Counted from the first letter of the stretch, positions 2,734-51,835 are shown. The stretch: 64,000 nt of DNA from Desulfomonilaceae bacterium (GCA_041662605.1 JBAZSD010000012.1:38788-102787), one strand, 5' to 3'. Numbers and translations: made by a program. The notes: a model not told the origin generated them from the sequence alone.

Positions 2734-2741
2734 GGATAAGC

Positions 2742-30968: not shown

Positions 30969-32746
30969 GACGCCTCCTCAATAGCATCAAACTTGCAAAC
31001 CTCAAGGCATGTGCCGCATCCGACGCACAACGCCGCGTTTATCTTGGAGTAGCCCTTCCGTTTCTTTCCGGGTTCAGGCGCATCGATCCTGACGAACTCA
31101 AGAGCCGGGCAGCCTGTGTTTATACATGTCTTACAACCGGTGCAGACGTCCTTTTTGATTCGTAACGGTTTGTCCGGGAGTATACGGCCTTTTTTCAGGA
31201 GAGCGCACGGCGCTCTTGCAATGATCACCGAGGGTTCCGGAGCTTCCAACTCTTCCTTTACTATCTTTTCCAGCTCTTTAAGCTTGTAGGGGCTGACGAC
31301 TCTAACCCTTTTCAATCCGAAAGACTCGCAGAGTTTGGCCATGTCGACCGCTATTGTAGGTTCTTCTCTCAATGTGAACCCGGTTCCGGGATGTTGTTGA
31401 GCGCCGGTCATCGCCGTGATTCTGTTGTCTACTATTACAACTGTAGATTGGCCTCCATTATAAGCCAGTTCGAGAAGGGGGGTCATGCCGGAATGGAAAA
31501 ACGTGGAATCGCCAATGACTGCGACGGCTTTTCCTTTCGCTACTTCCCCAAGTGTTCTGGCAAGGCCTGAAGCGATGCCGATGCCGGCTCCCATGCAAAG
31601 GCAATTATCCAGCATGCCCAATGGAGGCAGCGCTCCCAGGGTGTAACAGCCAATATCACCCGCAACGTAAACCTTGTTTTTCTTGAGAGCTGTAAAGGTG
31701 GCCCTATGAGGGCATCCCGGGCACATATTAGGGGGTCTGAGAGGCAGTTCCATATCGATGGATCCTATACTCTTGGCCGAAGACTTTCCCAGGAGCGCCA
31801 TTTCAACCAGTTCCGGCGATAGTTCGCCGCACAGCCCGGTGAGGTTTTTTCCCTCGACGTCGATTCCCATCAAACGAACCGCTTCCTCGATGAAGGGATC
31901 CAATTCTTCAATAACTACGAGTCGTTTAACCTTTGAAGCGAAATCGCGAATCATCTTTTCCGGAAGGGGCCATACCATGCCCAATCTCAAAAATGACGCG
32001 TTCGGCATGACTTCTCTTGCATACTGATAAGCCACACCAGAAGTTATGATGCCTAACGATTCGTCCGCCATTATAATTTTGTTATAAGAAAAAGTTTCAG
32101 CGAAAGAGGCTAAGCGTTTGAGCCTGTCTTCCACAAAGGGATGCTTTTTTCTAGCCATGGCGGGCAGCATTACATACTTCACAGGGTCCTTCTTAAGGCC
32201 TAACTCTCTCGGACCTTCTGTTCTTTCCCTCATTTCTACGAGCGACATAGAATGCGAGATACGCGTGGAACTCCTGAATATTACCGGTGTGTCGTAATCT
32301 TCGCTTATTTTTAGCGCTTCGCCTATCAAATCTTTGGCTTCCTGGCTGTCAGAAGGCTCCAGACACGGAACTTTACCAAATTTGGCGTAATTTCTTGTGT
32401 CCTGCTCATTTTGGGAAGAATGCATCGCAGGATCATCACAAACTATTATGACAAATCCGCCGTTAACTCCGGTGTAAGAAAGGGTCATAAACGGGTCCGC
32501 CGCCACGTTTAATCCTACATGTTTCATGGCAGCCAATGCTCTAGACCCACCATAGGAGGCGCCTGCCGCCACTTCTACAGCCACTTTTTCATTTGGGGCC
32601 CATCCGGCGACAATTTCCGGGTACCTTTCACCTATATATTCCAGGATCTCTGTGCTAGGTGTTCCCGGATAGGCTGAGGCCAATCGAACACCGTATTCGT
32701 AGGCCCCTCTTGCTATTGCTTCGTTTCCAGATAATAGCTCTTTCAC
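30965..32746 (-). CDS. iorA: Indolepyruvate:ferredoxin oxidoreductase, alpha subunit
   Basis: LLSGNEAIARGAYEYG N-terminus, a TPP-binding region (GDSTFFHSG), and two C-terminal 4Fe-4S motifs (CTGCKTCINTGCP and CVGCGTCLEVC). The ORF track extends to 32842. I prefer GTG 32746 because AAGGTGA is 7 nt upstream and the result is a family-typical N-terminus. Confidence 0.85.
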   Translation of the reverse strand: MKELLSGNEAIARGAYEYGVRLASAYPGTPSTEILEYIGERYPEIVAGWAPNEKVAVEVAAGASYGGSRALAAMKHVGLNVAADPFMTLSYTGVNGGFVIIVCDDPAMHSSQNEQDTRNYAKFGKVPCLEPSDSQEAKDLIGEALKISEDYDTPVIFRSSTRISHSMSLVEMRERTEGPRELGLKKDPVKYVMLPAMARKKHPFVEDRLKRLASFAETFSYNKIIMADESLGIITSGVAYQYAREVMPNASFLRLGMVWPLPEKMIRDFASKVKRLVVIEELDPFIEEAVRLMGIDVEGKNLTGLCGELSPELVEMALLGKSSAKSIGSIDMELPLRPPNMCPGCPHRATFTALKKNKVYVAGDIGCYTLGALPPLGMLDNCLCMGAGIGIASGLARTLGEVAKGKAVAVIGDSTFFHSGMTPLLELAYNGGQSTVVIVDNRITAMTGAQQHPGTGFTLREEPTIAVDMAKLCESFGLKRVRVVSPYKLKELEKIVKEELEAPEPSVIIARAPCALLKKGRILPDKPLRIKKDVCTGCKTCINTGCPALEFVRIDAPEPGKKRKGYSKINAALCVGCGTCLEVCKFDAIEEAS

Positions 32747-33198
32747 GGTCACTTCACCTTTCGTAAATTTCCATGATCTCGACTCACTGAAAGTCGGATC
32801 AAATGCCTGACAGGACGGAAGTATCACCGTAAACGGCGCCAAAACATCTAAACCAGGGCCGTTCGGTATGTATGAGGGATATCGACATTACAATCCTAAC
32901 CTTACTTAACGACCCTGTCAAGATTTTCATATATGCGTTAATTTGGCAAAAATCCTGAATTTACAATATAGCCTTAACAATTGGAATTAGTTGAATTAGT
33001 TGTAGTAAATACCTATCCTGACAAAGATGTTTCTGTTCACCTATGTGAAACTACGACAAGAGGGTAAGTCTGTCCGGCAATCAACATGTTATTATTGGCT
33101 GATAGATTGTAAGTCAAATATTATTGATTTATCTCGAAAGAAATGATAATAATGTGAACAAGTTGCGTTATCATAACAGGATATCATGAGAGATTCTT

Positions 33199-34352: not shown

Positions 34353-34874
34353 TCAGGCTTTAGGATTATACGTAGGAGCGTTTTTCGACGTTTTTCCCTT
34401 CAAATGTACATGATAGTATTCGTAAGTGAGAGGCCGACCCTCATCTATGGATTTCGAAAAAACTACCTCACCAATAAAAACTGTGTGTGTGCCTACATCC
34501 AAATGATTTTTGACTTTGACTTCCATTACGCCCAAGACATTATCAGTCACGAGCGGACATCCATTTGGGCCAATGAAATGGCCGGTTTTCTCAAATTTAT
34601 TTACGTCACGTCCTGATTTGAATCCAAAAAGTCCAATGAAGGGAAAAGGCGTGGAGTCTTTGAGCACCGATACACCAAAAATGCCGCCGCTTATAATTAA
34701 CTCATGGGTGTAATTCATTCTGTTGATAATTACTGCGACGCAGGGCGGCTGAGAAGTAACCTGTATTACAGTGTTAACGATTTGCCCGTTGATGCGAGCC
34801 CCATCGGCTGATGTTACGAGATACAAGCCGTAACTGAGGCCACGAAATACGTTGTAATCGACTTCAGGGATCAT
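34353..34874 (-). CDS. Flavin reductase-like (FMN-binding split-barrel) protein
   Basis: 173 aa with the pattern GLYLVTS...NGQIVNTVIQVTSQPP.VAVIIN..NYTHELI..GIFGVSVL, typical of the Flavin_Reduct domain. Confidence 0.65.
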   Translation of the reverse strand: MIPEVDYNVFRGLSYGLYLVTSADGARINGQIVNTVIQVTSQPPCVAVIINRMNYTHELIISGGIFGVSVLKDSTPFPFIGLFGFKSGRDVNKFEKTGHFIGPNGCPLVTDNVLGVMEVKVKNHLDVGTHTVFIGEVVFSKSIDEGRPLTYEYYHVHLKGKTSKNAPTYNPKA

Positions 34875-35041: not shown

Positions 35042-35681
35042 CTATTGCCCTGAATGCCCCCAATCTTTTTCAACGGCGTAATCGATAATCCTGTCAACGT
35101 ATTGAGAATCAATGGGAGGAACTGGAAGATTTGTTAGCGCCCTGTCGATGTTGGAGCGATCAAACACCGGGTTGTTCGCGAAGCGCAACAGAATTGTCTG
35201 CATTTGCCGCCACACCATCCTCTCGATCCTGTTTCTGGGTTGAATAAAGGGCGCTCCAGCGCCCGCAAATCGAAGGCCGTGCTAATTATGTGGACTTTAA
35301 GGGGCTTTTCGGTCCATCAATTTTCTTAATGTCACCGTTGAACCTAGGTTTGTCCTGAGAGGCTCCCCATGCTCGTCCATGTGCAGTCGTGTAGAAGCCG
35401 CGCTGTGCAACAAAGTGTGTCCACGTCTTTATTCCTTTATAGTCCTGGCGCCACTGGTCCCATTGATTGTCAGCTTCAAGGATATCACCCTTGAACCATT
35501 TTAGGGATCCCGCGCTTCTCGGGAGCCCGAGCCCCCCAAGAAACGTATTAGTATCCAGCTTTCGTGATTCACTCCTGTAGTGGGCCCATACGCTGTGACG
35601 GCGATCAAGCAATTCAGCCAACAGATATTCCCCGAGGAATCCTGTTCCACCGGTGAGAAGCACATTCATGGAATCGGACAT
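35042..35681 (-). pseudogene. Decayed NAD(P)-dependent thioester-reductase / SDR-like gene (N- and C-terminal remnants in different frames)
   Basis: The N-terminal frame (35681 to 35286) has the Rossmann motif VLLTGGTGFLGEYLLAELL and GDIL. A second frame (35281 to 35045, shifted by 1) reads ...RFANNPVFDRSNIDRALTNLPVPPIDSQYVDRIIDYAVEKDW-stop, which resembles the C-terminus of thioester-reductase domains. The total span is about 210 codons versus about 350-400 for intact family members. Confidence 0.5.
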
Positions 35682-35964
35682 GTATCTTCCGCATGTTCTA
35701 GAATTCCGCTCTAGGAACACCCTTATTCGAACATATTAATCTAGACTGTAGGCGTATGACATTACAAACAAAAAACCAAGACCAATCCTATAAAATCAAT
35801 CAATCTCACATCTTCATTAGTAGGTTAAAATATTGTAATAGCAGATGGTGTCTCATACAGGGAATCGTGAGGCTATTGACTTGAACCCAAGTTTTTTGAT
35901 TACATGCAGAGAATGATAGCTTATACTATAAGTTTGAATTTATTTTCCTAAATAAGGGTGTTAG

Positions 35965-38900
35965 ATGTCAGTCACATGTGATCAAGCTTCATTAATTTTC
36001 CTGTTTCAAGCTAATAATATTACCTCCTCACTAATAAATACAGCCAAAGACCTAAATGTTCGAGTGGCTTTTGATCTTGGATCTGAAAATCCATCTTTGT
36101 ATCAATCTTTGCTACTAGTAGCGGACGCGTCGCAAGATGTAGTGGATCTTAAGATCTCCCCCTGTGTACTCTCAGACCCAAAATTGGTAACCACGCTAAA
36201 TGAAATAGATGTCCGAAGAATTTGGCTGGACATGGAACCTGTTGGCGCTTTGGAGGACAAAAATTCAATATTTAAACAAATTGCAGAGCTAGCGTCTGAT
36301 TTTGAGATTATCCCAATATTGAGTGATTTAGGCTCCATCCGGAAAATTATAAAAGACCATCCAGACATAAGGAACATTGCCATAAAGGGAAATGAAGCAG
36401 CCGGTTTTGCTGGGTCAGAGACCTTGCTCACGCTTTTTTCAACTGTTTCTTCGCTACTCAAGCAATCAAACTCTCCTGCGAATATTTTCATATGGGGCGG
36501 GATCTCCTTTCCCGAGGTGGCGGCGGCGTTTCTGGCCTGTGGAGCAAAGGGCATAGTGTTTGAGAGTCTCCATTGGCTGACCGACATGGTCAACCTGGAC
36601 GAAGATTTCAAGAAGCGCATTGAGAACATTCGCCCGGATCACACTGAGTTGATAGGGGCAAATTTAGACGTTTATCTCCGAGTCTTCAATAAGGGTAATT
36701 CTACGTCCGTAAAAGATTTGAAAGATTTCGCCGGATCCTTATGTGGCGCCGAAATAAGAGACGAACAAAGAATTTCTTTTATCAGGCATGTTTTGAAAAA
36801 TTTGACGCATCCCCTTAAAAGCAAGTTTGGGAAAGATGAGTTGATCCCTCTAGGTACTGAAGCGACGTTCGCTGCATCTTTTGTTCGTCGCTACGGTTTT
36901 TTCACTGAACAGGCTATTGAGAAATTTAGTAAAGACATTGAAAAGTGTTTGAGCACGGCCCCCGAACGAGCCGTGTCTTTCGTAAAGAGCCCAACTGCTG
37001 AGAAGATGGGGACAGAATATCCATTTATTCAGGGGGCCATGTCCTGGATTACTGATTCAATGGAATTTGCGTCAGGCATTTTGGAGTCAGGAGCGTTACC
37101 AACGCTGGCGCTTGGGCTTATGGACTCCAACACATTGAACTCAAAATTCTCTGATTTGCAAAACCACTTGGGCGATCGGCCCTATGCCGTGAACATAATC
37201 ACCCTGTCCGAGAATCCATTCCGTGACGAGCAAGTTGAATGGGTAAAGTCTAAAAAACCTCGATTTGTAGTCATAGCTGCTGGAGAGCCATCTAACGCCA
37301 GGGGTTTCATTTCAGATGGTATTGAGGCTATATACATCGCGCCGAATGAGGAACTGCTCAGATTGGCGCTCGAAAACGGTATAAAGTTTGTGGTCCTTGA
37401 GGGTCATGAATCGGGGGGGCATGTCGGCGTTCATAGTACTGTGACTCTTGTCCAGGCGGCTCTGGATCTTAAGAGCCGTCGCCCTGAACTCTTTAAAGAT
37501 TCCACGATAATTTTCGCAGGTGGCTTTTTTAACCGTTTGACATCGGTCATTGCATCTATCATGGGCGCCGACGGCCTCCAAATGGGGACCGTATATCTGG
37601 CTTCAAAAGAAATTGTTGAAACAGGAGCACTAAGCCGGATTTACCAAAAGAGAATTCTTGAAGCTCAGCCCGGCTCGACTATAGTTACCGGCGAAAGCGC
37701 TGGACTACGTGTACGCTCCCTGAAGACACCAAAGATAGAAGCGATTTGTTCACTCGAACGCGATTTTGCCACCGGTTCCGAGAACGAAAGTTCCTTTCGA
37801 AGGAAAATAGAGACATTGAGCGCGGGCAGTCTTTTCATTGCTGCTAAAGGCATGAATAAGCCCGATGGCGAAAAGTTGGCTGAATCAGAAATAATGAAGC
37901 AGGGCCAATTCATGAGTGGCGCATGCGCGGGGGGAATCAACGTCCAGCTTTCTCTGCGCCAAATCCATGAGAATTTGGCATTTGGCGCGCCAAATGATGT
38001 TTTGCCCGCTCGGGTAAGCCTCAGACCTGACTACTCCGAACCATTGTCCAATAAACAGAGTTCTTTTTCCTTTTCCAGCCACCAGACTTCCACCACGCGT
38101 GGTTCCAACACAGGGACCAATGGATTCGAAAGGATAGCGATAACCGGAATGAGTGTTGTCAACTCACTCGGCGCTAGTCCTCTGGAAATAATACAGGCAA
38201 GCCTGGCTCTAAAAAGCGGTGTTACCCCGGTTCCGTCCACAAAGTGGAATCATGAGGCCTTTTTCAGCTCAAAACCTAGGGCTTCTGAAAAAACCTATTG
38301 CCGATATGGGGCTTTTCAAAACCTTGAAGTTTCCAGAAAGGAATTAGGCATTCCGCCTCAAGATTTCAGAACTATGGCTGAAGCCACAAAAATTACATTG
38401 TGGTTAGCCAAAAACGCAATATTGGAATCAAACATCCTGGAGTCGAACATCCCCAGAGAACGCATTGGCGTTCTAATATCTCAGAATTCAGGCGAAGCTG
38501 CGTCAACATTGGAGCAGATGATAATCAGAGGTTGCTCTGAAAAAATATTATCCGACATCAAGAGAGCGCTCAATCTTACCCCTGACCAGGAGGCTCTTGT
38601 ATCCGAAGAGATTAAGCAGAAAAGAATGGGTGTCGATGACACCACCCTTCTCGGTCGGCTAAACTGTTCAGCCGGTGGATTCATATGCAACAAATATGGA
38701 TTTATGGGCCCCAGTTTCTCTGTTTCAGCGGCTTGCGCAACGTCTTTGGTGGCTCTCTACAGCGCTTACCAAATGATTAGAAACGGAATCATAGACGCTG
38801 CTGTGGTAGGTGGGGGTGAGGAGCTTTTGACTCCAATGCATTTCCTGGAGTTTTCAGCTTTGGGGGCTTTGGCAGGTCTGTCGGGCGCCAACAAATCTCC

Positions 38901-41900
38901 TGCCGAGGCTAGTAGGCCCTTTGACGCGGACCGTGATGGGATGGTCCTTGGCGAAGGCGGAGCGATGATAGTCATCGAACGCGAATCAATCGCACTCAAA
39001 CGAGGCGCCAATATTTCGGCCTTTATAACTTCCATGGGAGCCAGCAATAACAATCTTGGCATGGTGGAGTCTTCCAGAGCCACTCAGGAAATCGCTATCA
39101 GAGCCTCTTTCAAGGACTGCTCATATGGCCCGGAATCCGTGGACTTGATAGAGTGCCACGCCACCAGCACTAAACAGGGCGATGTAGAAGAAGTCCAGGG
39201 GCTGAAATCAATATTCAATTCCGGTCGTCCGCCGGTTCTCACCTCTTTCAAGTCTCAAATCGGTCACACTTTGGGAGCTTCTGGACTTAACAGCCTGATC
39301 CGGGGTGTTATGGCCATGCGCTCGAAGGTTTTTTCTCCAACAATCAATTATTGCAAACCGGACCCCGAGATTGGAATGGAATCAGCGGGATTCAGAGTAA
39401 TGTCTGAACCTTCTGATTGGCCGCTCAGCAATGGCAATCCTCGGCGATTCCAGGTTAACGCTTTTGGCTTTGGCGGATCGAACTACGTGGTTCAGATCGA
39501 AGAATCCCAAAATCAAGAAGCGGTAAGATTTTCTCCATCTCCAGAAAAACTCAAGATTTCCGTTGATAAGCGTCCAATAGTCAAGGCTCCGGATGGAATA
39601 CATTTCTTTCGAAGTTCTATAGCTGGAGAAACATACCGGATAGCTGTAATCGCTGAATCTGAAGCCGCTGCTGTTGAGATGATACAAAACGAAGATTTGA
39701 TCTCCGGCGAAGGAGCGATCGGTGGTAAACGACTGAAAGTTTTGGCGAGGCAGGGCATTCATATCGGATCATCCAACGCGCCAATACCCCGCATGGCTTT
39801 TGTTTTCCCCGGTCAGGGATCACATTACGCCGGAATGGGGCATGAGCTTTACAATAACTTCCCGGTGATTCGGGAATGGATGAACAGAGCCGCTGACGTA
39901 GCGGAATTCGATATCCTTAAACTTCTATTTTACGATAAAGAAGAAGATTTACAAAAAACAAGGTGGCAGCAGCCGGCGCTATTTACTCTTGAATACGCCT
40001 TGGTGCAACACTTGATTTCACTGGGGGCTAGGGCCACGGCTTTGGCCGGACATAGTCTCGGAGAACTCACAGCCCTGTGCCTTGCCGGTGTTTACTCTTT
40101 TGAGGACGGCTTTCGCATTGTGAACAAGCGTGCAGTTTGCATGGACAAAGCCTGCAAAATGAACGTGGACCCGGGAATCATGGTGGCCTGTGACGCTCCT
40201 CTGGACGTGGTAGATCAAATCCTGTCCGAAGCAAAAAACGTTTACATAACGAACATAAATTCACCTAGGCAGATTGTAATCGGAGGGGCGACCGAAGAGT
40301 CCAAGGAAATCTCAGCTAGACTGAAAGAAATGGGATATAGGAGCACCGTCCTAAGGGTAAGCATGGCGTTTCATTCGCCGATCATGAGGTGTATCCACGA
40401 TGAGCTGAGAGAATTTATTGATACCGTAGATTTCCACCCCCCCCAAATTCCTGTTATTTCCAACACCACGATGAAACCTTTTCCGGACGATGCTGAAGAG
40501 ATAAAGGGAATTGTGATGGCCCATCTTGAGTCTCCGGTTCATTGGCTCCAGAATGCCAAGACGTTGTGGAACGAATTTGACGTGAGACTTTTTGTTGAAG
40601 TCGGGCCGCGAGAAGTTTTGTCTAACCTTATACAGGACACTATTGAAGAAGCCCCATGTATTCAGACCTGTCTGCCTTCCGCCGAGTCTTTAATGTGCAA
40701 GACAGCGGTAGCTCAACTGTATTCCAAGGGAATTCTGCCAATTGATAATGCGAGAGATTTGACCGACGATCTTTATCGGGGCTCCCAATTTGAAGCGGTT
40801 GAAAACCATAAGGAACGGCCGGTGGAGCGTACAGTTAATTCCAGGGTTTCAATACAAACTGATTTGAAAGAAATTATACAAAAAGAAATCAACTCATTCG
40901 TAATCGAAACATTTGGCAGATTTATCAGGCCTTCTATCTTACGGCAGATTCGTACAATTAAGGACCCAAAATTCAGCGAAGCCGATCTGGACAGGATACT
41001 TGGAAATTCATTCGGCGCGTTGTCCACCCCATCTCTTATTGAGACGCCGTACAATCAAACCCAGCTTACAATCGCTCAACAGGAACCAATGAGATCCGCT
41101 GCTCCTGAACCGGAATCCTCGGCTCCGGATACCACGGAGACAATTATTCGCATAATAATGGAGGTAACTGGTTATGACAGGGATGAGATTGAACCTCACA
41201 TGGACCTTAGGGAAGATCTCGCAATAAGATCCAGCAGGCTTCCTGTAATTATGGATGCGGTGGAAAGTCGATTCAAAATCAAGATCGAACTTGAGGACTT
41301 TATGGACGTGAGAACAATTAAGGACCTGTCGGATCGTCTCGACATGGTTGTATCAAGAAAAGCTCCGTCCATCGCAAAAAATGCGTCAGTCGATTCTGAA
41401 ATCGAGGAAACAGAGATTCTGGAAACTCCCAAGGAAATTTTGAAAAGACTTACTTTTTCGGAAGTTCCCCTGACTGGCGATTCTTTTCAGCCGCTGGAAC
41501 TTAGTCCGATGGATTCGGTTATTGTTGTTGGCCCTTCTTCGTCCGAAGAATTCTGCAGGAATGTGGGAGACGTTTTTCGCAGGGATTACGGGGTCCGGAT
41601 AGATCACTTTTTCTTTGGTTTGAGTCAATCGGATAAAGACGAAAACATCGTTGACTTGCTATCGGATTCCGGTCTGATGGAAATAAAAGACACAATAAGA
41701 GATTCCGAGTCTCCGGCGGGAATAGTCTTTGTCACTGATGAGGCTTTTGAGGCGAGATTTTCCGAAACAGCGACGTTGACGAACTTTTTGACGGGATTTT
41801 TCAGCTTGTTGCAGCAATTTATTCAGAAACCAAGCAAAAAGATGTCTGTATACTTGCAATCTGGGGGTGACTCGCCGAGCGCTTTCATGGAAGCCGTTAC

Positions 41901-43860
41901 GGGCATTTTCCTCAGCTCTGCTCTAGAATACAGTTCGGTCCTTTTTAGAACGGTATTGGTTGATTCATCTACTGACATAAGAACCGCTATACGAAGTTCA
42001 ATGGACAGGAGTAAAAAACCGGTTCAACTCATATGCAGAAATGAAGAACTGTACACTCTCCAAGGTAAGGTGGCTCCATTTCTGTTTGAAACCGCCAATA
42101 GGAAAATCGAAATCGGCGAGAATGATGTTGTTTTAATTTCAGGAGGGCTTTCCGGAGTGTCCGCAGAACTTGGGAGAGCTTTCGGGCCGTTTGGTCCAAA
42201 GTTGATCTTCATTGGTCGGACATCCATAGACAGCAGATCCAGCAATTACGTTAATGACCAAAAGACGTCCTTGACCCTCAAAGCCCTTGAAGAACTCCAA
42301 GCAGGCGGCCTCAGATCTTATTACTATCAACTGGATGTGACAGATTCGGGTTCAATTCAAAAAGTTCTGGATAGAATTCAGAAGGAACACGGCAAAATAA
42401 CTGGTGTGATTTATGGCGCCGGCCTATTGAAGGACAATTTTATCAATCGAATGCCAACAAAAGATTTTTCCTCTGTCGTCAACGTAAAATTTCTCGGAGC
42501 GCTAAATCTTTTCAACGCGTTGGACAAAACATCGCTCAAGTTTTTTGTAGCTCTTTCATCGGCAGCGGCCATCCAGGGAAACCCCGGACAGGCTAATTAC
42601 GCAGCGGCTAACAGGATGATGTCAGCATTTATAAGGGGCCAAAGAAGTATTCATCCCAAGATCCAGCTCAAGGCGCTCATGCTGCCCCCGATCGAGGGAG
42701 CCGGTATGGCTGAAAACGCTGAAACCAAGGAACTGATGCGCCGGATGAATGCGTCGTACATTTCACTTGAAGAATTGCGCGGAATGTTTTTACGAGAACT
42801 ATTCATCGCTTCCAAAAAAGATTCGTGGTCTCTCTTTATGAAGAACCTTCCGTGTTTGAGTTCCGCTCCCCTGGATACTCAAGTAGAAAATTCAGATGAA
42901 ACTGTTATCGATATCGGGTCAGTAGATTTCAGAAAAGCGGATTTCCCAATGCTGGACTCAGTACCGGATCTAGACATGGATAAAGGTTCTCTGAAGGCAT
43001 TAAGATTTTTCGATCAACAAAAAGACCCTTGGGTGGTGGATCACAAGCCTTTCAAGTTCATGAAACACCCTATAGTATCTGCGATCATGGCCGTTGAAAC
43101 ATTTATGGAGGCTTCCAAGACATTATTTCCGTTTTTGAACGTTGTAGGCCTGAAAGAAGCCCGTTTCCTTGACGTTATAGAATGCCCGCCGCATAAATCT
43201 GTAGAAAGCCAAATTTTTGTGGCAAAGGTTTTGGAAGAACGTGGAACAATCATTTGTGACGCTATAATGTGCGCTCAAAAGGGCAAGTCTGGAAAGACGA
43301 TTGAAAAGACTCATCCAAACTTCAAGGCTCAGATAATAATGGCTGGAAACGCTATTACCCCAGCCAGATCTTTTGAGGGGTTTCCTGTTCGACCGGACGA
43401 GTTGGACACAAGATCGATGGAACATGACGAAGTCATGGAGTGGTATTCTGATCGCTCCGATCTCAAAGGACGGTATCGGGTCATGGAAAGGTTTTACGGA
43501 ACCGGACCTGATTGTATCAAAGGAGAGTTTACTTACAGGCATTCCCACGATTTTGCCAAACCTCTGCGAACTGTATACCAGTTTTCCCCGTACCTTTTTG
43601 AAGCGTTTATGCATTTGATCAACTTTTATCTTGCGATGCGGGACGATCATGACAAGCGATCGCTTATTCCCTTTGGAATTAATGAACTGCGTTGTTTTCG
43701 CAAGATAGAGGATGGCGAACGGATTGTCGTGGAAGCGCGTAAAAAATCAGGTGATGAAAAAGGAGTGATGTGGGACGCGTTGGGACTGGACGCAAGTGGA
43801 TCAGTAGTAATGTATTCCAAGGGTATAAAGATGATATGGATATCTGGTTTAGGAACCTGA
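35965..43860 (+). CDS. Type I FAS/PKS-like megasynthase: degenerate NMO-like barrel, NMO-type enoyl reductase, KS, AT, ACP, KR, DH (PfaD::PfaA-like fusion)
   Basis: 2631-aa ORF. Motif order with approximate nt positions:
- Degenerate NMO-like barrel, 35965-36990 (IKGNEAAGFAGSE).
- FabK/PfaD-type ER, 37010-37950 (YPFIQGAMSWIT, LEGHESGGHVG).
- KS, 38130-39500 (AACATS with Cys924 = 38734-38736, ECHATST, GHTLGASG).
- AT, 39790-40640 (FPGQGSHY, GHSLGE with Ser1364 = 40054-40056, AFHSP).
- ACP, 41130-41350 (LAIRSS with Ser1756 = 41230-41232).
- KR, 42100-42750 (ISGGLSGVS, NYAAAN).
- PKS-type DH, 42900-43857 (DHKPFKFMKHP with His2360 = 43042-43044).
No TE, R or C release domain is visible. Confidence 0.85.
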   Translation: MSVTCDQASLIFLFQANNITSSLINTAKDLNVRVAFDLGSENPSLYQSLLLVADASQDVVDLKISPCVLSDPKLVTTLNEIDVRRIWLDMEPVGALEDKNSIFKQIAELASDFEIIPILSDLGSIRKIIKDHPDIRNIAIKGNEAAGFAGSETLLTLFSTVSSLLKQSNSPANIFIWGGISFPEVAAAFLACGAKGIVFESLHWLTDMVNLDEDFKKRIENIRPDHTELIGANLDVYLRVFNKGNSTSVKDLKDFAGSLCGAEIRDEQRISFIRHVLKNLTHPLKSKFGKDELIPLGTEATFAASFVRRYGFFTEQAIEKFSKDIEKCLSTAPERAVSFVKSPTAEKMGTEYPFIQGAMSWITDSMEFASGILESGALPTLALGLMDSNTLNSKFSDLQNHLGDRPYAVNIITLSENPFRDEQVEWVKSKKPRFVVIAAGEPSNARGFISDGIEAIYIAPNEELLRLALENGIKFVVLEGHESGGHVGVHSTVTLVQAALDLKSRRPELFKDSTIIFAGGFFNRLTSVIASIMGADGLQMGTVYLASKEIVETGALSRIYQKRILEAQPGSTIVTGESAGLRVRSLKTPKIEAICSLERDFATGSENESSFRRKIETLSAGSLFIAAKGMNKPDGEKLAESEIMKQGQFMSGACAGGINVQLSLRQIHENLAFGAPNDVLPARVSLRPDYSEPLSNKQSSFSFSSHQTSTTRGSNTGTNGFERIAITGMSVVNSLGASPLEIIQASLALKSGVTPVPSTKWNHEAFFSSKPRASEKTYCRYGAFQNLEVSRKELGIPPQDFRTMAEATKITLWLAKNAILESNILESNIPRERIGVLISQNSGEAASTLEQMIIRGCSEKILSDIKRALNLTPDQEALVSEEIKQKRMGVDDTTLLGRLNCSAGGFICNKYGFMGPSFSVSAACATSLVALYSAYQMIRNGIIDAAVVGGGEELLTPMHFLEFSALGALAGLSGANKSPAEASRPFDADRDGMVLGEGGAMIVIERESIALKRGANISAFITSMGASNNNLGMVESSRATQEIAIRASFKDCSYGPESVDLIECHATSTKQGDVEEVQGLKSIFNSGRPPVLTSFKSQIGHTLGASGLNSLIRGVMAMRSKVFSPTINYCKPDPEIGMESAGFRVMSEPSDWPLSNGNPRRFQVNAFGFGGSNYVVQIEESQNQEAVRFSPSPEKLKISVDKRPIVKAPDGIHFFRSSIAGETYRIAVIAESEAAAVEMIQNEDLISGEGAIGGKRLKVLARQGIHIGSSNAPIPRMAFVFPGQGSHYAGMGHELYNNFPVIREWMNRAADVAEFDILKLLFYDKEEDLQKTRWQQPALFTLEYALVQHLISLGARATALAGHSLGELTALCLAGVYSFEDGFRIVNKRAVCMDKACKMNVDPGIMVACDAPLDVVDQILSEAKNVYITNINSPRQIVIGGATEESKEISARLKEMGYRSTVLRVSMAFHSPIMRCIHDELREFIDTVDFHPPQIPVISNTTMKPFPDDAEEIKGIVMAHLESPVHWLQNAKTLWNEFDVRLFVEVGPREVLSNLIQDTIEEAPCIQTCLPSAESLMCKTAVAQLYSKGILPIDNARDLTDDLYRGSQFEAVENHKERPVERTVNSRVSIQTDLKEIIQKEINSFVIETFGRFIRPSILRQIRTIKDPKFSEADLDRILGNSFGALSTPSLIETPYNQTQLTIAQQEPMRSAAPEPESSAPDTTETIIRIIMEVTGYDRDEIEPHMDLREDLAIRSSRLPVIMDAVESRFKIKIELEDFMDVRTIKDLSDRLDMVVSRKAPSIAKNASVDSEIEETEILETPKEILKRLTFSEVPLTGDSFQPLELSPMDSVIVVGPSSSEEFCRNVGDVFRRDYGVRIDHFFFGLSQSDKDENIVDLLSDSGLMEIKDTIRDSESPAGIVFVTDEAFEARFSETATLTNFLTGFFSLLQQFIQKPSKKMSVYLQSGGDSPSAFMEAVTGIFLSSALEYSSVLFRTVLVDSSTDIRTAIRSSMDRSKKPVQLICRNEELYTLQGKVAPFLFETANRKIEIGENDVVLISGGLSGVSAELGRAFGPFGPKLIFIGRTSIDSRSSNYVNDQKTSLTLKALEELQAGGLRSYYYQLDVTDSGSIQKVLDRIQKEHGKITGVIYGAGLLKDNFINRMPTKDFSSVVNVKFLGALNLFNALDKTSLKFFVALSSAAAIQGNPGQANYAAANRMMSAFIRGQRSIHPKIQLKALMLPPIEGAGMAENAETKELMRRMNASYISLEELRGMFLRELFIASKKDSWSLFMKNLPCLSSAPLDTQVENSDETVIDIGSVDFRKADFPMLDSVPDLDMDKGSLKALRFFDQQKDPWVVDHKPFKFMKHPIVSAIMAVETFMEASKTLFPFLNVVGLKEARFLDVIECPPHKSVESQIFVAKVLEERGTIICDAIMCAQKGKSGKTIEKTHPNFKAQIIMAGNAITPARSFEGFPVRPDELDTRSMEHDEVMEWYSDRSDLKGRYRVMERFYGTGPDCIKGEFTYRHSHDFAKPLRTVYQFSPYLFEAFMHLINFYLAMRDDHDKRSLIPFGINELRCFRKIEDGERIVVEARKKSGDEKGVMWDALGLDASGSVVMYSKGIKMIWISGLGT

Positions 43861-43861
43861 A

Positions 43862-44614
43862 ATGAGGGGCGCCGAGCGGAAATTGGATGAAAACCGTTCA
43901 GGAGAATTTTGCTCTTTGCGGCAGGACGTCTTTTACACTAGTGTCAGGCATAAGTCTGTTAACCCCGGGAGCGAGTCTCGTGGAGAAATCAAGCGGCTCG
44001 TTGCCCGTAGTCTGATGGCGTTCGCTATTGAGAGAGGTATGCTAAGAGCGAATTCTTATGAATTGGATGATCGAATTCTGGACATTCAGAAAGACAGTCT
44101 AGGTAGACCGACTCTTAAAGGTTTCAAAAATGAGAATTGGTCGATTTCATTTTCATATGGGCGCGAGAAATTATGGGGGGCCATATGCTACGGGAATTTA
44201 AATTGTGGAATCGACGTCGCGTATCCCGAAGAATTCACAAAGTCCTACCCTTTTCATAGAGCGTTCAGTGACTCGGAATTGTATCTTCTGTCGTCTTCAC
44301 TGGATCTTAATGCTATCGAGTCCGCTGCGTTTGCATGGTCGGCCAAAGAGTCAGTAGTCAAAGCGCTAGGAGTCGGGTTTCATTTCTGTGATCCACTTGA
44401 TCTGGAAGTGACTGATGTTCAATCATTCGGGCGGTATTTTGAGGCTAGGCTAGGTTTAACGGTCAAACCCAAATTAAAGGCCACTCTAAATGGCTTCACG
44501 GTCTTTAAGACCATGGTACGCCATGATGAAAACGGATTTCTATCCTTAAGCGCGACCGCTATTTCGAATAATCAAGTCCATTCTGAGGGCTTGGAGCGTT
44601 CCATCGTGATGTAG
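43862..44614 (+). CDS. 4'-phosphopantetheinyl transferase (Sfp/PfaE type)
   Basis: The ATG lies 1 nt after the megasynthase TGA. Motifs CGIDVAYPEEF and FAWSAKESVVKALG, i.e. (W/F)(S/C)xKE(S/A)xxK. Confidence 0.8.
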   Translation: MRGAERKLDENRSGEFCSLRQDVFYTSVRHKSVNPGSESRGEIKRLVARSLMAFAIERGMLRANSYELDDRILDIQKDSLGRPTLKGFKNENWSISFSYGREKLWGAICYGNLNCGIDVAYPEEFTKSYPFHRAFSDSELYLLSSSLDLNAIESAAFAWSAKESVVKALGVGFHFCDPLDLEVTDVQSFGRYFEARLGLTVKPKLKATLNGFTVFKTMVRHDENGFLSLSATAISNNQVHSEGLERSIVM

Positions 44615-44626
44615 GCTAACAGTTTA

Positions 44627-46183
44627 ATGAGAGTACTTCTGATAAACAGCAACAGAAAAGGAGATATGCTGGCCGCCGCGCCAATTGGTCTCTGTTATGT
44701 GGCTTCCGCCGTAGAGGCCGCTGGCCATTCGGTGAAGACGCTGGATTTATGTTTTGCAGGCAAGAGAGTACTTTCCGAAGTAAGCAATTTAGTAGAGTCG
44801 TTTGCGCCCGATGTTGTCGGGGTTTCTGTCAGGAACATAGACAATACGAACATGCTTCACTCAATCTCCTATCTTCCTGACGCAGCCGGTTTGATGGAGC
44901 ATTTAAGACTGATAACGGCAAGCCCTGTCGTGATTGGTGGATCTGCCGCAAGTTTGGCTCCAGAAGCCATTCTGAGGTTCTTGAAGGCCGATTACATTGT
45001 TGTTTCGGATGGTGAAGAGCCCTTTCAGCGCTTACTCAAATGTTTGGAAGACCACAAAAACCCCTCGGGAATACCCGGTGTGGGAATGCTGATTAACGGA
45101 TCGTTTCATCTCACTCCGCCTGTTCTTAATGGGTTTGACGGCAAAGCGCCCGATATAGGCCGATGGGTCGATACTTCACTATACCGAAAAATAGGCGCGG
45201 CTTATAACATCCAGACCAAAAGAGGCTGCAGGAAGCGCTGCGTTTATTGCACCTACAATCAGTCCCTTGAAGGGGGTCGGTTAAGGTTGAGAGATCCGAT
45301 AGATGTAGTAGACGAAATAGAGGACGCCCTCAAAAAGTACCGACCAAATTGTTTTGAATTTGTAGATTCGGTTTTTAACGACCCGATCGAGCATTCGAGA
45401 GCGATTCTTGAAGAAATAATCAGGCGGCCCTGGAAGGCCTTGTTCACGGCAATGGGTGTTCACCCAAAGGGGCTTGACCGAGAATACCTCGATTTGATGT
45501 GGAGAGCCGGTTTCAGGTCTTTAATGATCACTCCGGAGTCCGCTTCAGACAAAATGTTGGACTCATATAGAAAAGGATTTACAAAGCAAGACGTCCTCAA
45601 TGCCGCGGAAGCGCTGAATCGGACGGCTTTCGCTGTCTGGTGGTTTTTCATGATAGGTGGGCCTGGAGAGACAAATGAAACGTTGAAAGAATCTCTGGAT
45701 TTTGTGCTGACTAATCTTCAGAAAAGGGGGCGCGCCGTAACTCATGTAGCTCAATTCTTCTTCGGCGTGAGATTATATCCGGGCACTGATTTGTGGAAGA
45801 TGGCTCAAGAGCAGGGATTCGTCAATGGGACTCCCAATCCCCTTGAACAGGCGTGGTATTTGTCAGAGGAACTTGATCTTGATAAAGCGTTGTCCCAGAT
45901 GCTTGGGGCCGCTGCAATATGTCCAGAGGTCTACCTTGGATTTGATGAACGACTGTTGGCCTTTTCCAGGACTATCGTAGCAGTTTGTCGTCTTTTGCGT
46001 TTGAAAGGGCCATACTGGAAATACATGAGGTTTGGTAACGTAATAGGAATCAAGACAGGAATAAGGTTCATTTTTAAACCACGAGACGCTTCAGGTTTGA
46101 TAAGGAAGGCTCTCATCAGGCAATCTTATTCCGGCCCTCTTTTGAATAAACTTCAAGAACCGTTGATAGCCCTGGATAGTTGA
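44627..46183 (+). CDS. B12-binding-domain radical SAM enzyme (class B rSAM)
   Basis: N-terminal Rossmann-like B12-binding-type region (MRVLLINSN...PIGLCYVASAVEAAGHSVKTLDL...VGVSV). CX3CX2C motif GCRKRCVYCTY (Cys201/205/208 = 45227-45250). It starts 12 nt after the PPTase stop. Confidence 0.8.
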   Translation: MRVLLINSNRKGDMLAAAPIGLCYVASAVEAAGHSVKTLDLCFAGKRVLSEVSNLVESFAPDVVGVSVRNIDNTNMLHSISYLPDAAGLMEHLRLITASPVVIGGSAASLAPEAILRFLKADYIVVSDGEEPFQRLLKCLEDHKNPSGIPGVGMLINGSFHLTPPVLNGFDGKAPDIGRWVDTSLYRKIGAAYNIQTKRGCRKRCVYCTYNQSLEGGRLRLRDPIDVVDEIEDALKKYRPNCFEFVDSVFNDPIEHSRAILEEIIRRPWKALFTAMGVHPKGLDREYLDLMWRAGFRSLMITPESASDKMLDSYRKGFTKQDVLNAAEALNRTAFAVWWFFMIGGPGETNETLKESLDFVLTNLQKRGRAVTHVAQFFFGVRLYPGTDLWKMAQEQGFVNGTPNPLEQAWYLSEELDLDKALSQMLGAAAICPEVYLGFDERLLAFSRTIVAVCRLLRLKGPYWKYMRFGNVIGIKTGIRFIFKPRDASGLIRKALIRQSYSGPLLNKLQEPLIALDS

Positions 46184-46324: not shown

Positions 46325-46612
46325 ATGACGCTTACCAAAGCTGATATAGCAAAAAAGATTGCGGATGACTGTGGTTTTATGAAAGGGGAAGCAACCGAGA
46401 TTGTGGAAAAACTCCTCGACATAGTCAAAGATTGCTTAATCGATGGGGAAGATGTGATGATTTCTGGGTTTGGAAAGTGGACTGTCAAGGGGAAAAATTC
46501 CCGACGAGGTAGAAACCCTCAAACTGGAGCTGAGTTGATTCTTGACGCCCGCAAAGTAGTTACCTGGAAATATTCTCCGGTCCTTAAGAAATCCGTGAAC
46601 GTACCCGCCTAG
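46325..46612 (+). CDS. ihfA: Integration host factor alpha-like (IHF/HU family) DNA-bending protein
   Basis: MTLTKADIAKKI...ISGFGKW.V..KNSRRGRNPQTGAELILDARKVVTWK. This resembles IhfA closely (MALTKAE..., R.GRNPKTGE). GGGAGG lies upstream of ATG 46325. Confidence 0.7.
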   Translation: MTLTKADIAKKIADDCGFMKGEATEIVEKLLDIVKDCLIDGEDVMISGFGKWTVKGKNSRRGRNPQTGAELILDARKVVTWKYSPVLKKSVNVPA

Positions 46613-46719: not shown

Positions 46720-48138
46720 TTGAGCTGGGAAATCTTGACTTCTCGATCAGGAAATTCCAATCCGATATCAAGAGCTTTCCGGAATGTGCTGGAGGGTTAT
46801 GCGGAAGTTCTGCGGATATCCATCCCACTAATCCTTTCCACTTCCTCTTTGACTTTGGCGCTTTTTGTGGATCGGTTGATGCTCTCCTGGCACAGCATTG
46901 ACTCTGTAGCGGCCGCCACACCCGGAGGGATAACCTATTTTACAATCTGCTGTTTTTTTCAGGGTACTGCTCAATATACCAACACGCTGGTAGCTCAAAG
47001 TCATGGCGCAGGAGACAGTGTCACGCTGTCGAGGTCGGTCTGGCAAGGGATTCTGTTTTCTTTGTTGGCGCTCCCGCTGCTGATTATGACTATACCTGTG
47101 GGCCGGTGGGTGTTGGCCCATACGGGCCATGAACCGAATATAATCACTCTTGAAAGAGAATACTTTACGATACTTATGTACAGTGGCGTGGCGCTTCCTC
47201 TTAATGCAGCGTTTTCGTCCTTTTTCTCGGGAAGGGGTCGAACTTCGTATGTACTAATTGGCAATCTCATAGGGAATTTAGGAAACATAGTTCTGGACTA
47301 CGTTTTAATATTCGGGAAGTTTGGTTTTCCTGAACTGGGAATAAAGGGCGCAGGAATCGCCACGGCTGTGACCAATTTCCTCCCGACCATTTATTGGGCA
47401 TGGTTATTCTTGGGACCCCGTTATCAGCCCAAGTATCAGACCAGAAAACAATTCACCTTCGACAGGAAAATCTTTTGCGCCCTCCTAAGATTCGGTCTTC
47501 CAGCGGGGACTCAATTTATTCTGGATGTCGGATCATTCACGGCTTTTGTCCTGATCGTGGGCAAACTGGGGGCAATAGACCTTGCCGCAACCAATATTGC
47601 GCTCAGCATTGAGACATTGTCCTTCTTACCTATGGTGGGTATGTCGATAGCCACGAGTTCCATAGTAGGTGAATACATAGGCCGAAAACAGATCAACGTA
47701 GCGGAAAGGAGGGTGTATTGCTCATTAGCCCTCGCCTTGTTTTACACGGGCGTCGTCACAGCGTTCTTCTGGATAATACCCGAATTTTTTTTAAATCTTT
47801 TCAGGCCCTATCACCAGACGAAATTGGCTTTCGAGCCCCTGCTTGAAAAAGGTGTGGCCCTGGTTCGGATAATAGGGGCCTACACCCTATTTGACACAGT
47901 TTTCATCATATTCAACGGAGCGCTAAAAGGAGCTGGTGACACGAAGTTTACGATGTGGGCCCAGATCATAGCGTCCTGGGTATTTTTTGTCCCACCTGTT
48001 TACATCATGACGACATATCTGGGGTTGGGAATTTTGGCAGCCTGGTCCTGGCTCTTAATCTACGTCATTTCGATCGGAACTATTTTCTGGTTGAGGTTCA
48101 AATCCGGTCACTGGAAGTCGATCAGACTATTTAACTGA
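46720..48138 (+). CDS. MATE-family efflux transporter
   Basis: 472 aa and 12 TM segments, with a MATE-like internal repeat (LRISIPLILS...; LRFGLPAGTQF...). TTG start. Confidence 0.75.
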   Translation: MSWEILTSRSGNSNPISRAFRNVLEGYAEVLRISIPLILSTSSLTLALFVDRLMLSWHSIDSVAAATPGGITYFTICCFFQGTAQYTNTLVAQSHGAGDSVTLSRSVWQGILFSLLALPLLIMTIPVGRWVLAHTGHEPNIITLEREYFTILMYSGVALPLNAAFSSFFSGRGRTSYVLIGNLIGNLGNIVLDYVLIFGKFGFPELGIKGAGIATAVTNFLPTIYWAWLFLGPRYQPKYQTRKQFTFDRKIFCALLRFGLPAGTQFILDVGSFTAFVLIVGKLGAIDLAATNIALSIETLSFLPMVGMSIATSSIVGEYIGRKQINVAERRVYCSLALALFYTGVVTAFFWIIPEFFLNLFRPYHQTKLAFEPLLEKGVALVRIIGAYTLFDTVFIIFNGALKGAGDTKFTMWAQIIASWVFFVPPVYIMTTYLGLGILAAWSWLLIYVISIGTIFWLRFKSGHWKSIRLFN

Positions 48139-51149: not shown

Positions 51150-51752
51150 ATGCATATATCCGAAGGAGTACTCTCCGGCGCCGTTTTGATAGCCGGCGCA
51201 GGACTGTCCACTGTAGGCGTGGGTATTGGAATCAAGAATCTCGATTACGATCAAATTCCTAAGGTCGGACTCTTGTCAGCAGTTTTCTTTGTAGCCTCCC
51301 TAGTCCATATTCCTGTGGGCCCAGCGTCCGCCCATCTGGTTCTTAGTGGTTTGTGCGGGCTTTTGCTTGGATGGACAGCGTTTCCAGCTATTCTTGTCGG
51401 CCTCAGTTTTCAGGCTTTGCTCTTTCAGTTCGGAGGACTTACCACACTTGGAGCCAATACTTTTAACATAGCCTTTCCAGCGGTTCTCCTGGGAATGACG
51501 TTGGGGAAATTAGTAAATAGTGGAAATTCCGCCATCAGAATGACGGCCGAATTTCTTTGTGGGGCTGGATCCATATTCTTCTCGGGACTTCTGGTAGCGC
51601 TGTCCCTTTTTGCGACAGGTAAGGCTTTCTTGCCGGCCTCAAAGTTGATTATCCTGGCTCACATACCTATCATGCTGATTGAAGGATTAATTACAGTATT
51701 CATAGTAGAGTTTGTCAAAAAGGTTAGACCGGAAATCTTGAGCCCAGCCTAG
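51150..51752 (+). CDS. cbiM: ECF-type cobalt/nickel transporter substrate-capture component CbiM/NikM
   Basis: Characteristic N-terminus MHISEGVLS (the Met-His metal-ligand end). 200 aa and polytopic. Confidence 0.8.
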   Translation: MHISEGVLSGAVLIAGAGLSTVGVGIGIKNLDYDQIPKVGLLSAVFFVASLVHIPVGPASAHLVLSGLCGLLLGWTAFPAILVGLSFQALLFQFGGLTTLGANTFNIAFPAVLLGMTLGKLVNSGNSAIRMTAEFLCGAGSIFFSGLLVALSLFATGKAFLPASKLIILAHIPIMLIEGLITVFIVEFVKKVRPEILSPA

Positions 51753-51835
51753 TGTCTCCCGGATAACTAAATTAATTAGATAGGTCAAACGCTTGGGTTT
51801 TGCGTGGGAATAACTATTGGGGCGTTGAAAATTTT

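Follow-up and report, generated by a model that had tools for sequence, protein, structure and literature searches.

What does a sulfate-reducer-type bacterium of the Desulfomonilaceae (phylum Thermodesulfobacteriota) make with a three-gene operon in which a complete reducing synthase, all on one polypeptide, stands next to a cobalamin-dependent radical S-adenosylmethionine (rSAM) enzyme? The operon occupies positions 35965-46183 of a 64,000-nucleotide stretch of DNA from Desulfomonilaceae bacterium (GCA_041662605.1 JBAZSD010000012.1:38788-102787), which was analyzed as a whole and is referred to here as the window. It consists of three open reading frames (ORFs) on the plus strand, encoding a megasynthase (35965-43860; 2631 amino acids (aa)), an Sfp-type 4'-phosphopantetheinyl transferase (PPTase; 43862-44614; 250 aa) and a class-B, i.e. 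cobalamin-binding, rSAM enzyme (44627-46183; 518 aa). These coordinates agree exactly with those of a first-pass annotation made by a model from the same DNA, and so do the two junctions, which we read from the sequence: the TGA stop codon of the megasynthase gene (43858-43860) is separated by 1 nt from the ATG of the PPTase gene at 43862, and the TAG stop codon of the latter (44612-44614) by 12 nt from the ATG of the rSAM gene at 44627. The locus is characterized by its gene and domain content, by intact catalytic motifs, by tight operon spacing and by a linkage that is conserved among relatives. The cluster probably makes a special lipid, and with moderate confidence we regard the operon as a 'secondary lipid' pathway, in which an iterative type-I synthase resembling a fatty acid synthase (FAS) provides a chain that is modified by the B12-dependent rSAM enzyme, most likely by C-methylation.

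An ORF of 2631 codons that encodes six ordered catalytic domains is not due to chance. Pfam searches were run on 43 ORFs of the window, covering most of those of at least 150 aa, and found in the megasynthase NMO, ketosynthase (KS), acyltransferase (AT), acyl carrier protein (ACP), ketoreductase (KR) and PS-DH domains, in this order and each above its gathering score. The succession of enoyl reductase (ER), KS, AT, ACP, KR and dehydratase (DH) proposed in the first-pass annotation is thus borne out, and every motif quoted there could be located in the three proteins. The ER domain (36991-37980; residues 343-672; Pfam NMO at residues 343-667, 76 bits) carries the motifs YPFIQGAMSWIT at residue 352 and LEGHESGGHVG at residue 478; taken alone, it matches a single NCBIfam model at E<=0.01, namely FabK (TIGR03151, 127 bits), and the solved structures nearest to it are FabK enzymes (E=4e-25). 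It is therefore referred to as a FabK-type, flavin mononucleotide (FMN)-dependent ER. The KS domain (38128-39351; residues 722-1129; N- and C-terminal ketoacyl-synt domains in Pfam) has the Cys-His-His triad in AACATS (residue 922), ECHATST (1063) and GHTLGASG (1100), and gives similar scores with the models of FabF (223 bits) and PfaA (202 bits). The AT domain (39799-40659; residues 1279-1565; Pfam Acyl_transf_1, 148 bits) is of the malonyl type, with GHSLGE at residue 1362 and AFHSP at residue 1468, and comes near FabD, scoring 218.6 bits with a model whose cut-off is 260.9 bits.

The ACP is present in one copy (41140-41340; residues 1726-1792; Pfam PP-binding, 32.4 bits). Its attachment motif is odd, reading IRSSRL (residue 1754; window positions 41224-41241) in place of the usual (D/G)xDS(L/I), and the same change from Asp to Arg is found in the homologous protein of a related locus, L013. 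It is followed by the KR domain (42130-42720; residues 2056-2252; Pfam KR at residues 2056-2228, 108.8 bits; adh_short, 55 bits) with the motifs GGLSGV (residue 2060) and NYAAAN (2211), and by a DH domain of the double-hot-dog type known from polyketide synthases (PKSs) (42982-43857; approximately residues 2340-2631; Pfam PS-DH at residues 2492-2623 and a weak match to PKS_DH_N). The DH histidine lies in DHKPFKFMKHP at residue 2359, and FEAFMH at residue 2545 is a possible acid partner for it. A KS, an AT with the GHSxG motif, the ACP serine, the KR tyrosine, the DH histidine and an ER are thus united in one polypeptide, as in fully reducing type-I FAS/PKS enzymes, and judged by this sequence the megasynthase is presumably a single-module, iterative and fully reducing type-I FAS/PKS-like enzyme. 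Among the 43 ORFs scanned, no KS with chain length factor (KS-CLF), no FabA-type DH, no PfaB AT and no thioesterase was found, which agrees with the earlier statement that partners of the PfaB/PfaC type, a FabA-type DH and a thioesterase are missing.

The first 340 residues of the megasynthase (35965-36984) had gone without mention in the first-pass annotation. They align in register both with the protein's own ER domain (BLASTP, E=0.002) and with Pfam NMO (15 bits, below threshold), and comparison of 13-sequence profiles of the two regions by hhalign gives a probability of 93.5% (E=2e-7) over columns 111-278 and 111-277. At the position of LEGHESGGHVG this segment reads IKGNEAAGFAG (residue 140), so that the histidine is missing, and the QGAMS motif is gone. 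By these sequence comparisons the segment is a degenerate second, FabK/NMO-like copy of the ER and not a linker. It is probably non-catalytic and probably has a structural role, for example as pseudo-dimer partner of the active ER. One protein, P0216, was considered as a stand-alone, unfused ER-ER protein; it is a fragment at the end of a contig, which rules out this candidate.

The second protein of the operon has the features of an Sfp-type PPTase, namely an ACPS-superfamily domain (Pfam PF01648, 39.6 bits compared with a cut-off of 25), a length of 250 aa (the norm being about 230-250 aa) and the W/FxxKEA/SxxK motif, here WSAKESVVKA at residue 159. The third protein combines a B12-binding domain (PF02310, 58 bits) with a Radical_SAM domain (PF04055, 72.8 bits), and its CxxxCxxC motif is CRKRCVYC at residues 201-208 (C201, C205 and C208). 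The profile that fits it best is TIGR04072, 'lipid biosynthesis B12-binding/radical SAM protein' (rSAM_ladder_B12), matched over residues 2-421 with E=9e-90 and 301.4 bits, below the equivalog cut-off of 360 bits; the profiles ranked next are those of the methylases BzaD and TsrM. In a sequence-profile search of solved proteins TsrM was closest (E=2e-33), followed by MgmA and OxsB. An AlphaFold model of medium confidence (predicted local distance difference test score, pLDDT, 73; predicted template modeling score, pTM, 0.70) again retrieved TsrM first in a Foldseek search (E=3e-24, TM approximately 0.6) and OxsB second, with MgmA, AprD4 and TokK as further matches. The N-terminal B12-binding domain, the CxxxCxxC core and the predicted TsrM/OxsB/TokK-like fold are those of class-B rSAM enzymes, and by sequence the protein is a class-B enzyme outside every curated equivalog. 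The names of its relatives in the databases are limited to the generic 'B12-binding domain-containing radical SAM protein'.

Most class-B rSAM enzymes characterized so far methylate unactivated carbon or phosphorus centers, and methylation is therefore the default expectation for the enzyme of the window. In the pathway that we infer, down to iterative use, chain length, the reaction and substrate of the rSAM enzyme, the mode of release and the final lipid, the PPTase would turn the single ACP of the megasynthase into its holo form; the AT would load malonyl, the KS would condense, and the KR, the DH and the FabK-type ER would fully reduce the beta-carbon, iteratively, so that a saturated acyl chain would result on the ACP. 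The linkage of the genes suggests that the rSAM enzyme tailors this chain. It would alter an unactivated carbon, most likely by C-methylation to a methyl-branched chain, with the 5'-deoxyadenosyl radical taking a hydrogen atom and methyl-cobalamin giving the methyl group. In relatives of the window a thioester-reductase-like short-chain dehydrogenase/reductase (SDR) would release the chain reductively as aldehyde or alcohol, and a MATE or ABC-2 transporter might move the product.

The same pathway might employ the rSAM enzyme for C-C coupling, cyclization or rearrangement and thus lead to ladderane-like, ring-containing or membrane-spanning lipids, which we consider rather unlikely. Among the structural matches of the predicted rSAM fold, the second-best is OxsB, which catalyzes a rearrangement, and the best profile, TIGR04072, of which we take Kuste2803 to be the founding member, is tied to a proposal on ladderanes. 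In this proposal the B12-binding rSAM protein Kuste2803 of anammox bacteria takes part in ladderane formation (Rattray et al. 2009; PMC2649909). The window enzyme and the Kuste2803-type enzymes of anammox 'ladderane' clusters are alike in that a class-B rSAM enzyme is found beside genes of fatty acid synthesis; neither has an assigned reaction. However, the window enzyme stays below the TIGR04072 cut-off (301 compared with 360 bits) and has an extra C-terminal stretch of about 100 aa, and its partner is a type-I megasynthase, whereas type-II FAS genes accompany the anammox enzyme. Moreover, since the ER looks active and no FabA-type isomerase is present, a polyene precursor is not expected. 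Non-methylation chemistry is also at odds with the prevalence of methylases among the class-B enzymes characterized. Finally, 'ladderane' clusters called by antiSMASH occur in non-anammox phyla without linked ladderanes, and such calls in Desulfobacterota are unexplained (PMC9902471).

Do the rSAM enzyme and the megasynthase work together at all? Synteny was analyzed in 80 genome loci around relatives of the rSAM enzyme, onto which the window proteins were mapped and in which all ORFs were clustered into families; the relatives are all from metagenome-assembled genomes (MAGs), without an identified cultured carrier, and one family dominates. The MAGs that encode the closest rSAM and megasynthase proteins carry the labels Desulfomonile, Desulfomonilaceae, Desulfomonilales, Syntrophaceae and 'delta proteobacterium', and the nearest loci, L001 and L002, show about 91% DNA identity over 20.7 kb. 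In a neighbor-joining tree of the rSAM proteins, from which the fragmented protein of L012 was left out, the window belongs to a clade of 48 sequences. The megasynthase adjoins the rSAM gene at 42 of these 48 loci; three are cut off upstream, of which two retain the 3' end of the megasynthase gene, and three (L005, L006 and L028), all nested recent duplicates, are without it. The synteny comparison that the first-pass annotation had proposed is thus positive, with an upstream megasynthase at about 45 of the 48 loci of the clade. The PPTase gene follows the megasynthase gene at 39 loci, and the same gene map was obtained for L084, which derives from another assembly and an independent gene caller.

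This adjacency is kept at protein identities of only 40-60% while the flanks differ. In addition, members of a second rSAM clade (49-55% identity) adjoin or neighbor a more divergent megasynthase in varied arrangements: the rSAM gene lies immediately upstream of the megasynthase gene at L066 and L076, downstream of it with a gene for a 373-aa GNAT-like protein in between at L073, convergent to it with an extended SDR gene and a PPTase gene in between at L074, and about 7 kb away at L075. That the linkage has been re-created in different orders is the strongest argument for the two proteins working together, beyond inherited gene order. Second loci were observed in genomes that also hold the full cluster (L005, 7824-13080; L006, 8329-13000; L012, 8609-13000). 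They contain an intact reductase gene, an rSAM paralogue with 74-76% identity and a gene for an HpnB/CruG-like lipid glycosyltransferase, and are without a megasynthase; at L005 and L006 the reductase gene (at L005 also the PPTase gene) stands beside the rSAM gene and the glycosyltransferase gene follows, and L012 is organized likewise. This suggests a split or duplicated pathway.

There is accordingly only a small chance that the rSAM enzyme is functionally unrelated to the megasynthase and that their adjacency is gene order inherited within the Desulfomonilaceae. Such a scenario would agree with the conservation of housekeeping-type genes (IHF-like, metK, ahcY) beside the cluster, with the close rSAM paralogues lacking a megasynthase at L005, L006, L012 and L028, and with distant paralogues that lie near a DegT-type aminotransferase gene in surroundings of the sugar type (L050, L065, L068, L069). 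Paralogues in unrelated contexts, such as those next to a DegT-type aminotransferase and a flavin reductase, do indicate that the rSAM family as a whole is not confined to this pathway. Functional independence is, however, difficult to reconcile with the 12-nt gap and the common orientation of the PPTase and rSAM genes, with the retention of the linkage across diverged proteins and changing flanks, with its re-creation in the second clade and with the reductase gene (at L005 also the PPTase gene) that stays next to the rSAM gene even at paralogue loci without a megasynthase.

How would the chain leave the synthase? Divergent from the megasynthase gene, on the minus strand, lies a pseudogene of an extended SDR resembling thioester reductases and fatty-acyl reductases (35042-35720), a decayed gene that does not appear in the first-pass annotation. 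The minus-strand ORF at 35286-35720 represents its N-terminus. When the intact homologue of locus L013 (388 aa) was searched against the window by tblastn, it was recovered as four fragments that are spread over three frames and lack residues 161-311. The gene is disrupted by two frameshifts, and DNA alignment with locus L001, which is 91% identical, showed that about 440 nt have been lost. The L013 protein scores 79.6 bits against the thioester-reductase domain model TIGR01746 (cut-off 213 bits) and is below the cut-off of PRK07201 as well; by sequence it may be called a relative of the TIGR01746 type, not a member. Homologues are found upstream of the megasynthase gene at 29 loci, and an extended SDR is also present at the distant loci L074, L081, L082 and L086. 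On the evidence of sequence similarity and position, the thioester-reductase-like SDR is likely the chain-release enzyme in these relatives. The window itself contains no intact release enzyme of the TIGR01746-type extended SDR kind, and since the gene is broken in this genome, release would need a paralogue encoded elsewhere or another route.

A further broken gene was observed in the window. The gyrA gene (13444-15963, minus strand) is split into two ORFs by a single in-frame TGA (14782-14784), which stands for a glycine codon (GGA to TGA) of the conserved RAHILE-G-LK motif and could be a sequencing error, a true nonsense mutation or recoding. Because gyrA is essential, this stop implies that small sequence errors are possible in the window; the three ORFs of the cluster are intact despite it. 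In view of the gyrA stop we considered whether base-calling errors could have broken the reductase gene; the loss of about 440 nt compared with L001 rules this out.

The megasynthase has a much wider distribution than its association with this rSAM enzyme. When residues 1-1200 were used in an exhaustive HMMER search, matches extending from the degenerate ER up to and including the KS were obtained for about 36 representatives (at 50% identity), of which about 30 are full-length (2437-2678 aa) and have the same N-terminal architecture; beyond these representatives only ordinary multimodular PKS proteins were matched. A search seeded with a distant member returned 832 clusters at E<=1e-50, and the Pfam domains NMO, KS, AT and KR are found in all of the 120 clusters listed among them, PP-binding and PS-DH in nearly all. 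The family members listed come from MAGs of Desulfomonilaceae, Desulfobaccales, Syntrophobacteraceae and Desulfobulbaceae, and their only database name is 'SDR family NAD(P)-dependent oxidoreductase'.

Two partners of the megasynthase are constant in lineages that include Desulfobulbaceae and Syntrophobacteraceae (L081-L083, L086-L088), namely a PPTase and the 373-aa GNAT-like protein, which shows 42-58% identity among loci. Variable partners are a GT21-family glycosyltransferase, an rSAM-SPASM protein, an extended SDR, an ABC-2 exporter and a fusion of AMP-binding, ACP and alpha-oxoamine-synthase domains (1100-1180 aa). The branch with GNAT-like, GT21 and rSAM-SPASM-type partners was seen to take in L073, L079 and L080 as well. 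From their gene content these partner sets look like amino- or sphingo-type glycolipid pathways of Thermodesulfobacteriota, and to our knowledge such pathways have not been described. That Desulfobacterota make sphingolipids has been proposed (PMC11334938). No homologue of the alpha-oxoamine synthase, the 373-aa GNAT-like protein or the GT21 glycosyltransferase was found by tblastn in the window; a sphingolipid-type cluster (Spt, CerR, bCerS) in the window is thereby ruled out, and such genes accompany the megasynthase only at L081, L082 and L086. The B12-dependent rSAM proteins of L082 are not orthologues of the window enzyme, being only 24-26% identical to it. The expected co-conservation of all three genes of the operon consequently holds within the rSAM clade of the window and is not universal, as other Thermodesulfobacteriota pair the megasynthase and the PPTase with other tailoring genes. 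These differing partner sets indicate a portable unit for chain synthesis, made up of megasynthase and PPTase, for which this rSAM enzyme is one lineage-specific tailoring choice.

The same distribution bears on the idea that the megasynthase is the main housekeeping fatty acid synthase of its hosts and not an enzyme of secondary lipids. The protein is a complete FAS with FabK-, FabF- and FabD-like domains, its gene is widespread in the family, and such a role was proposed for the Type S cluster of Desulfobacterium autotrophicum, which is without fabA and fabZ (Shulse and Allen 2011; PMC3098273). However, it is accompanied by a dedicated PPTase, tailoring genes and transporters, and accessory sets that differ by lineage are typical of specialized lipids; a housekeeping function is therefore improbable.

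Our literature search found no paper describing this architecture or assigning a product to it, so that the question of an already assigned product, raised in the first-pass annotation, has a negative answer within that search; a published survey of hybrid specialized lipids makes no mention of radical SAM or of Desulfobacterota. The closest described kind are the Pfa-like 'secondary lipid synthases', several types of which occur in sulfate reducers with products unknown; among the layouts reported are Type J, with an ER gene followed by KS-MAT-ACP3-KR and without PfaC, and the myxobacterial arrangement of pfa1 (ER) and pfa2 (KS-AT-ACPn-KR-DH) (Shulse and Allen 2011; PMC3098273). The window system shares with them a type-I FAS/PKS hybrid, an ER of the NMO superfamily, the order KS-AT-ACP-KR(-DH), an Sfp-type PPTase and an occurrence in anaerobes of the Deltaproteobacteria type. 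It differs in that the ER is N-terminally fused, doubled (one degenerate and one active copy) and FabK- instead of PfaD-like, that the KS is FabF-like and the AT FabD-like, that a single ACP is present without a KS-CLF or FabA-type DH partner, and that a reductase and a class-B rSAM enzyme are linked. The first-pass annotation had called the megasynthase a PfaD-like ER fused to a PfaA-like protein. This description does not hold up against the profiles: a PfaD-type ER is ruled out, FabK being the sole matching model, and the whole protein reaches 446 bits with the PfaA model (TIGR02813), whose cut-off is 1010 bits. With a FabK-only ER, a FabF-like KS, a FabD-like AT and a sub-cut-off PfaA score, the resemblance to PfaD fused to PfaA is one of layout and not of membership. 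Nor are there the tandem ACPs of Pfa-type synthases, as only one PP-binding stretch was detected; a distant relative at L081 has two. That the operon encodes a Pfa-type synthase of polyunsaturated fatty acids or polyenes is thus very improbable, in spite of the PfaA-like domain order and the 446 bits, given the missed PfaA cut-off, the single ACP, an ER that fits no model other than FabK, and the lack of KS-CLF and FabA-type DH among the window ORFs scanned.

Other systems resemble the cluster in part. The methylases TsrM, MgmA (which acts on glutamine) and TokK, together with OxsB, share with the window enzyme the B12-binding Rossmann domain and the partial TIM-barrel rSAM fold (predicted for the latter), but they are only about 15-21% identical to it, and their substrates are amino acids, peptides and carbapenem or nucleoside intermediates, not lipids. 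The heterocyst glycolipid pathway comprises an HglE-type PKS, a thioester reductase, a glycosyltransferase and an exporter. The window cluster and its relatives likewise combine a Pfa-like reducing synthase, a reductive-release enzyme and a transporter, and L005, L006 and L012 pair reductase and rSAM genes with the HpnB/CruG-like lipid glycosyltransferase. In contrast to the heterocyst pathway, the window contains no glycosyltransferase and no multi-ACP HglE, its rSAM enzyme has no counterpart there, and the hosts are anaerobic and non-cyanobacterial. The rSAM enzyme of jawsamycin biosynthesis is a HemN-like cyclopropanase that is not known to belong to the B12-binding class B, and it works with a PKS of another architecture. 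The likeness to the system for jawsamycin and polycyclopropanated fatty acids is thus one of concept, in that a radical SAM enzyme decorates the chain of an iterative type-I synthase (PMC13389473).

Several points speak against a lipid pathway with a methylating rSAM enzyme. Nearly all syntenic loci come from one MAG family, so that their conservation is partly due to vertical inheritance, and every member is known from sequence alone. Class-B rSAM enzymes also carry out non-methylation chemistry, as in OxsB, BchE and HpnJ-like proteins. Since the candidate release gene is a pseudogene here, this genome may hold a pathway that has changed or is in decay. At L081, L083 and L086-L088 the megasynthase and the PPTase are not accompanied by this rSAM enzyme, which is thus dispensable for the function of the synthase. 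Lastly, the metK, ahcY, IHF and MATE genes near the cluster may be housekeeping neighbors only.

The latter genes form part of a recurrent neighborhood. The usual order is a divergent reductase gene, followed by the genes for megasynthase, PPTase, rSAM enzyme, an IHF-like protein, sometimes a small zinc-ribbon protein, and a MATE transporter; beyond the latter lie either opposite-strand MFS and HlyD genes, as in the group of the window, or metK, ahcY and a GGDEF response regulator gene. In the window the IHF-alpha/HU-like DNA-binding protein is encoded at 46325-46612 (plus strand; NCBIfam IHF-alpha, 101 bits, cut-off 111). Such a gene follows the rSAM gene at 22 loci, and whether it belongs to the pathway is doubtful. 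The MATE-family efflux transporter (46720-48138, plus strand; Pfam MatE; TIGR00797, 234 bits) has downstream counterparts at 33 loci and is a possible product exporter of uncertain pathway membership. The metK and ahcY genes are found after the cluster at 15 loci, weak side evidence for a high turnover of S-adenosylmethionine and hence for methylation. Searches of the whole window with Rfam (at gathering thresholds) and ARAGORN found no RNA element, no cobalamin riboswitch and no tRNA, and a scan for consensus promoters detected no more sites than in shuffled sequence and no convincing terminator inside the operon.

Further genes in the surroundings were observed. A flavin-reductase-domain protein (34353-34874, minus strand) adjoins the reductase pseudogene. 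Homologues with 58-63% identity are encoded two genes upstream of rSAM paralogues at L050, L065, L068 and L069, all in unrelated contexts, and the protein might supply electrons to enzymes of the rSAM family. Five kb downstream of the B12-dependent rSAM gene, a cobalt transporter of the energy-coupling factor (ECF) type is encoded (CbiM/CbiQ/ABC-ATPase; 51150-53220, plus strand); this position is kept only in the nearest relatives L001 and L002. A 2-oxoacid:ferredoxin oxidoreductase (30384-32842, minus strand) lies 3 kb upstream of the cluster, and a three-subunit enzyme of this type is encoded directly upstream of the rSAM and megasynthase genes at L066 (6828-9615) and L076 (6795-9582). It could be a source of branched starter acyl-CoA or of reduced ferredoxin, or its placement could be due to chance. 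Two large ORFs of 596 and 562 aa at 1000-4430 (minus strand), which have no Pfam match and overlap by 49 nt, may represent a single very large gene split by a frameshift.

What would such a pathway mean for its hosts? Anaerobic bacteria contain many methyl-branched, ether-linked and membrane-spanning lipids, which are used by geochemists as biomarkers, and the enzymes that branch unactivated carbons without oxygen are largely unknown; the system described here is a small and testable candidate. We tentatively suggest, as a possible although doubtful extension, that the rSAM enzyme acts on a chain still attached to the dedicated type-I synthase, or just set free from it, and methylates or cross-links its unactivated carbons, which would give anaerobes a way to make mid-chain-branched or other unusual long-chain lipids without oxygen. 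Ringelberg and co-workers reportedly described in 1994 'signature' branched long-chain hydroxy fatty acids of Desulfomonile. If our suggestion is true, these branched long-chain hydroxy fatty acids of Desulfomonile would be candidate products, as would the methyl branches of ether- and tetraether-type sedimentary biomarkers. With only three genes, for synthase, activator and B12-dependent rSAM enzyme, which are kept in many uncultured Desulfomonilaceae and are compact enough for heterologous expression, the operon is a tractable test case. The megasynthase moreover represents a large family with a common architecture (degenerate ER, ER, KS, AT, ACP, KR, DH) across the Thermodesulfobacteriota, of which our literature search found no description, and whose lineages combine the synthase with different tailoring sets, including sets with an alpha-oxoamine synthase and a glycosyltransferase.

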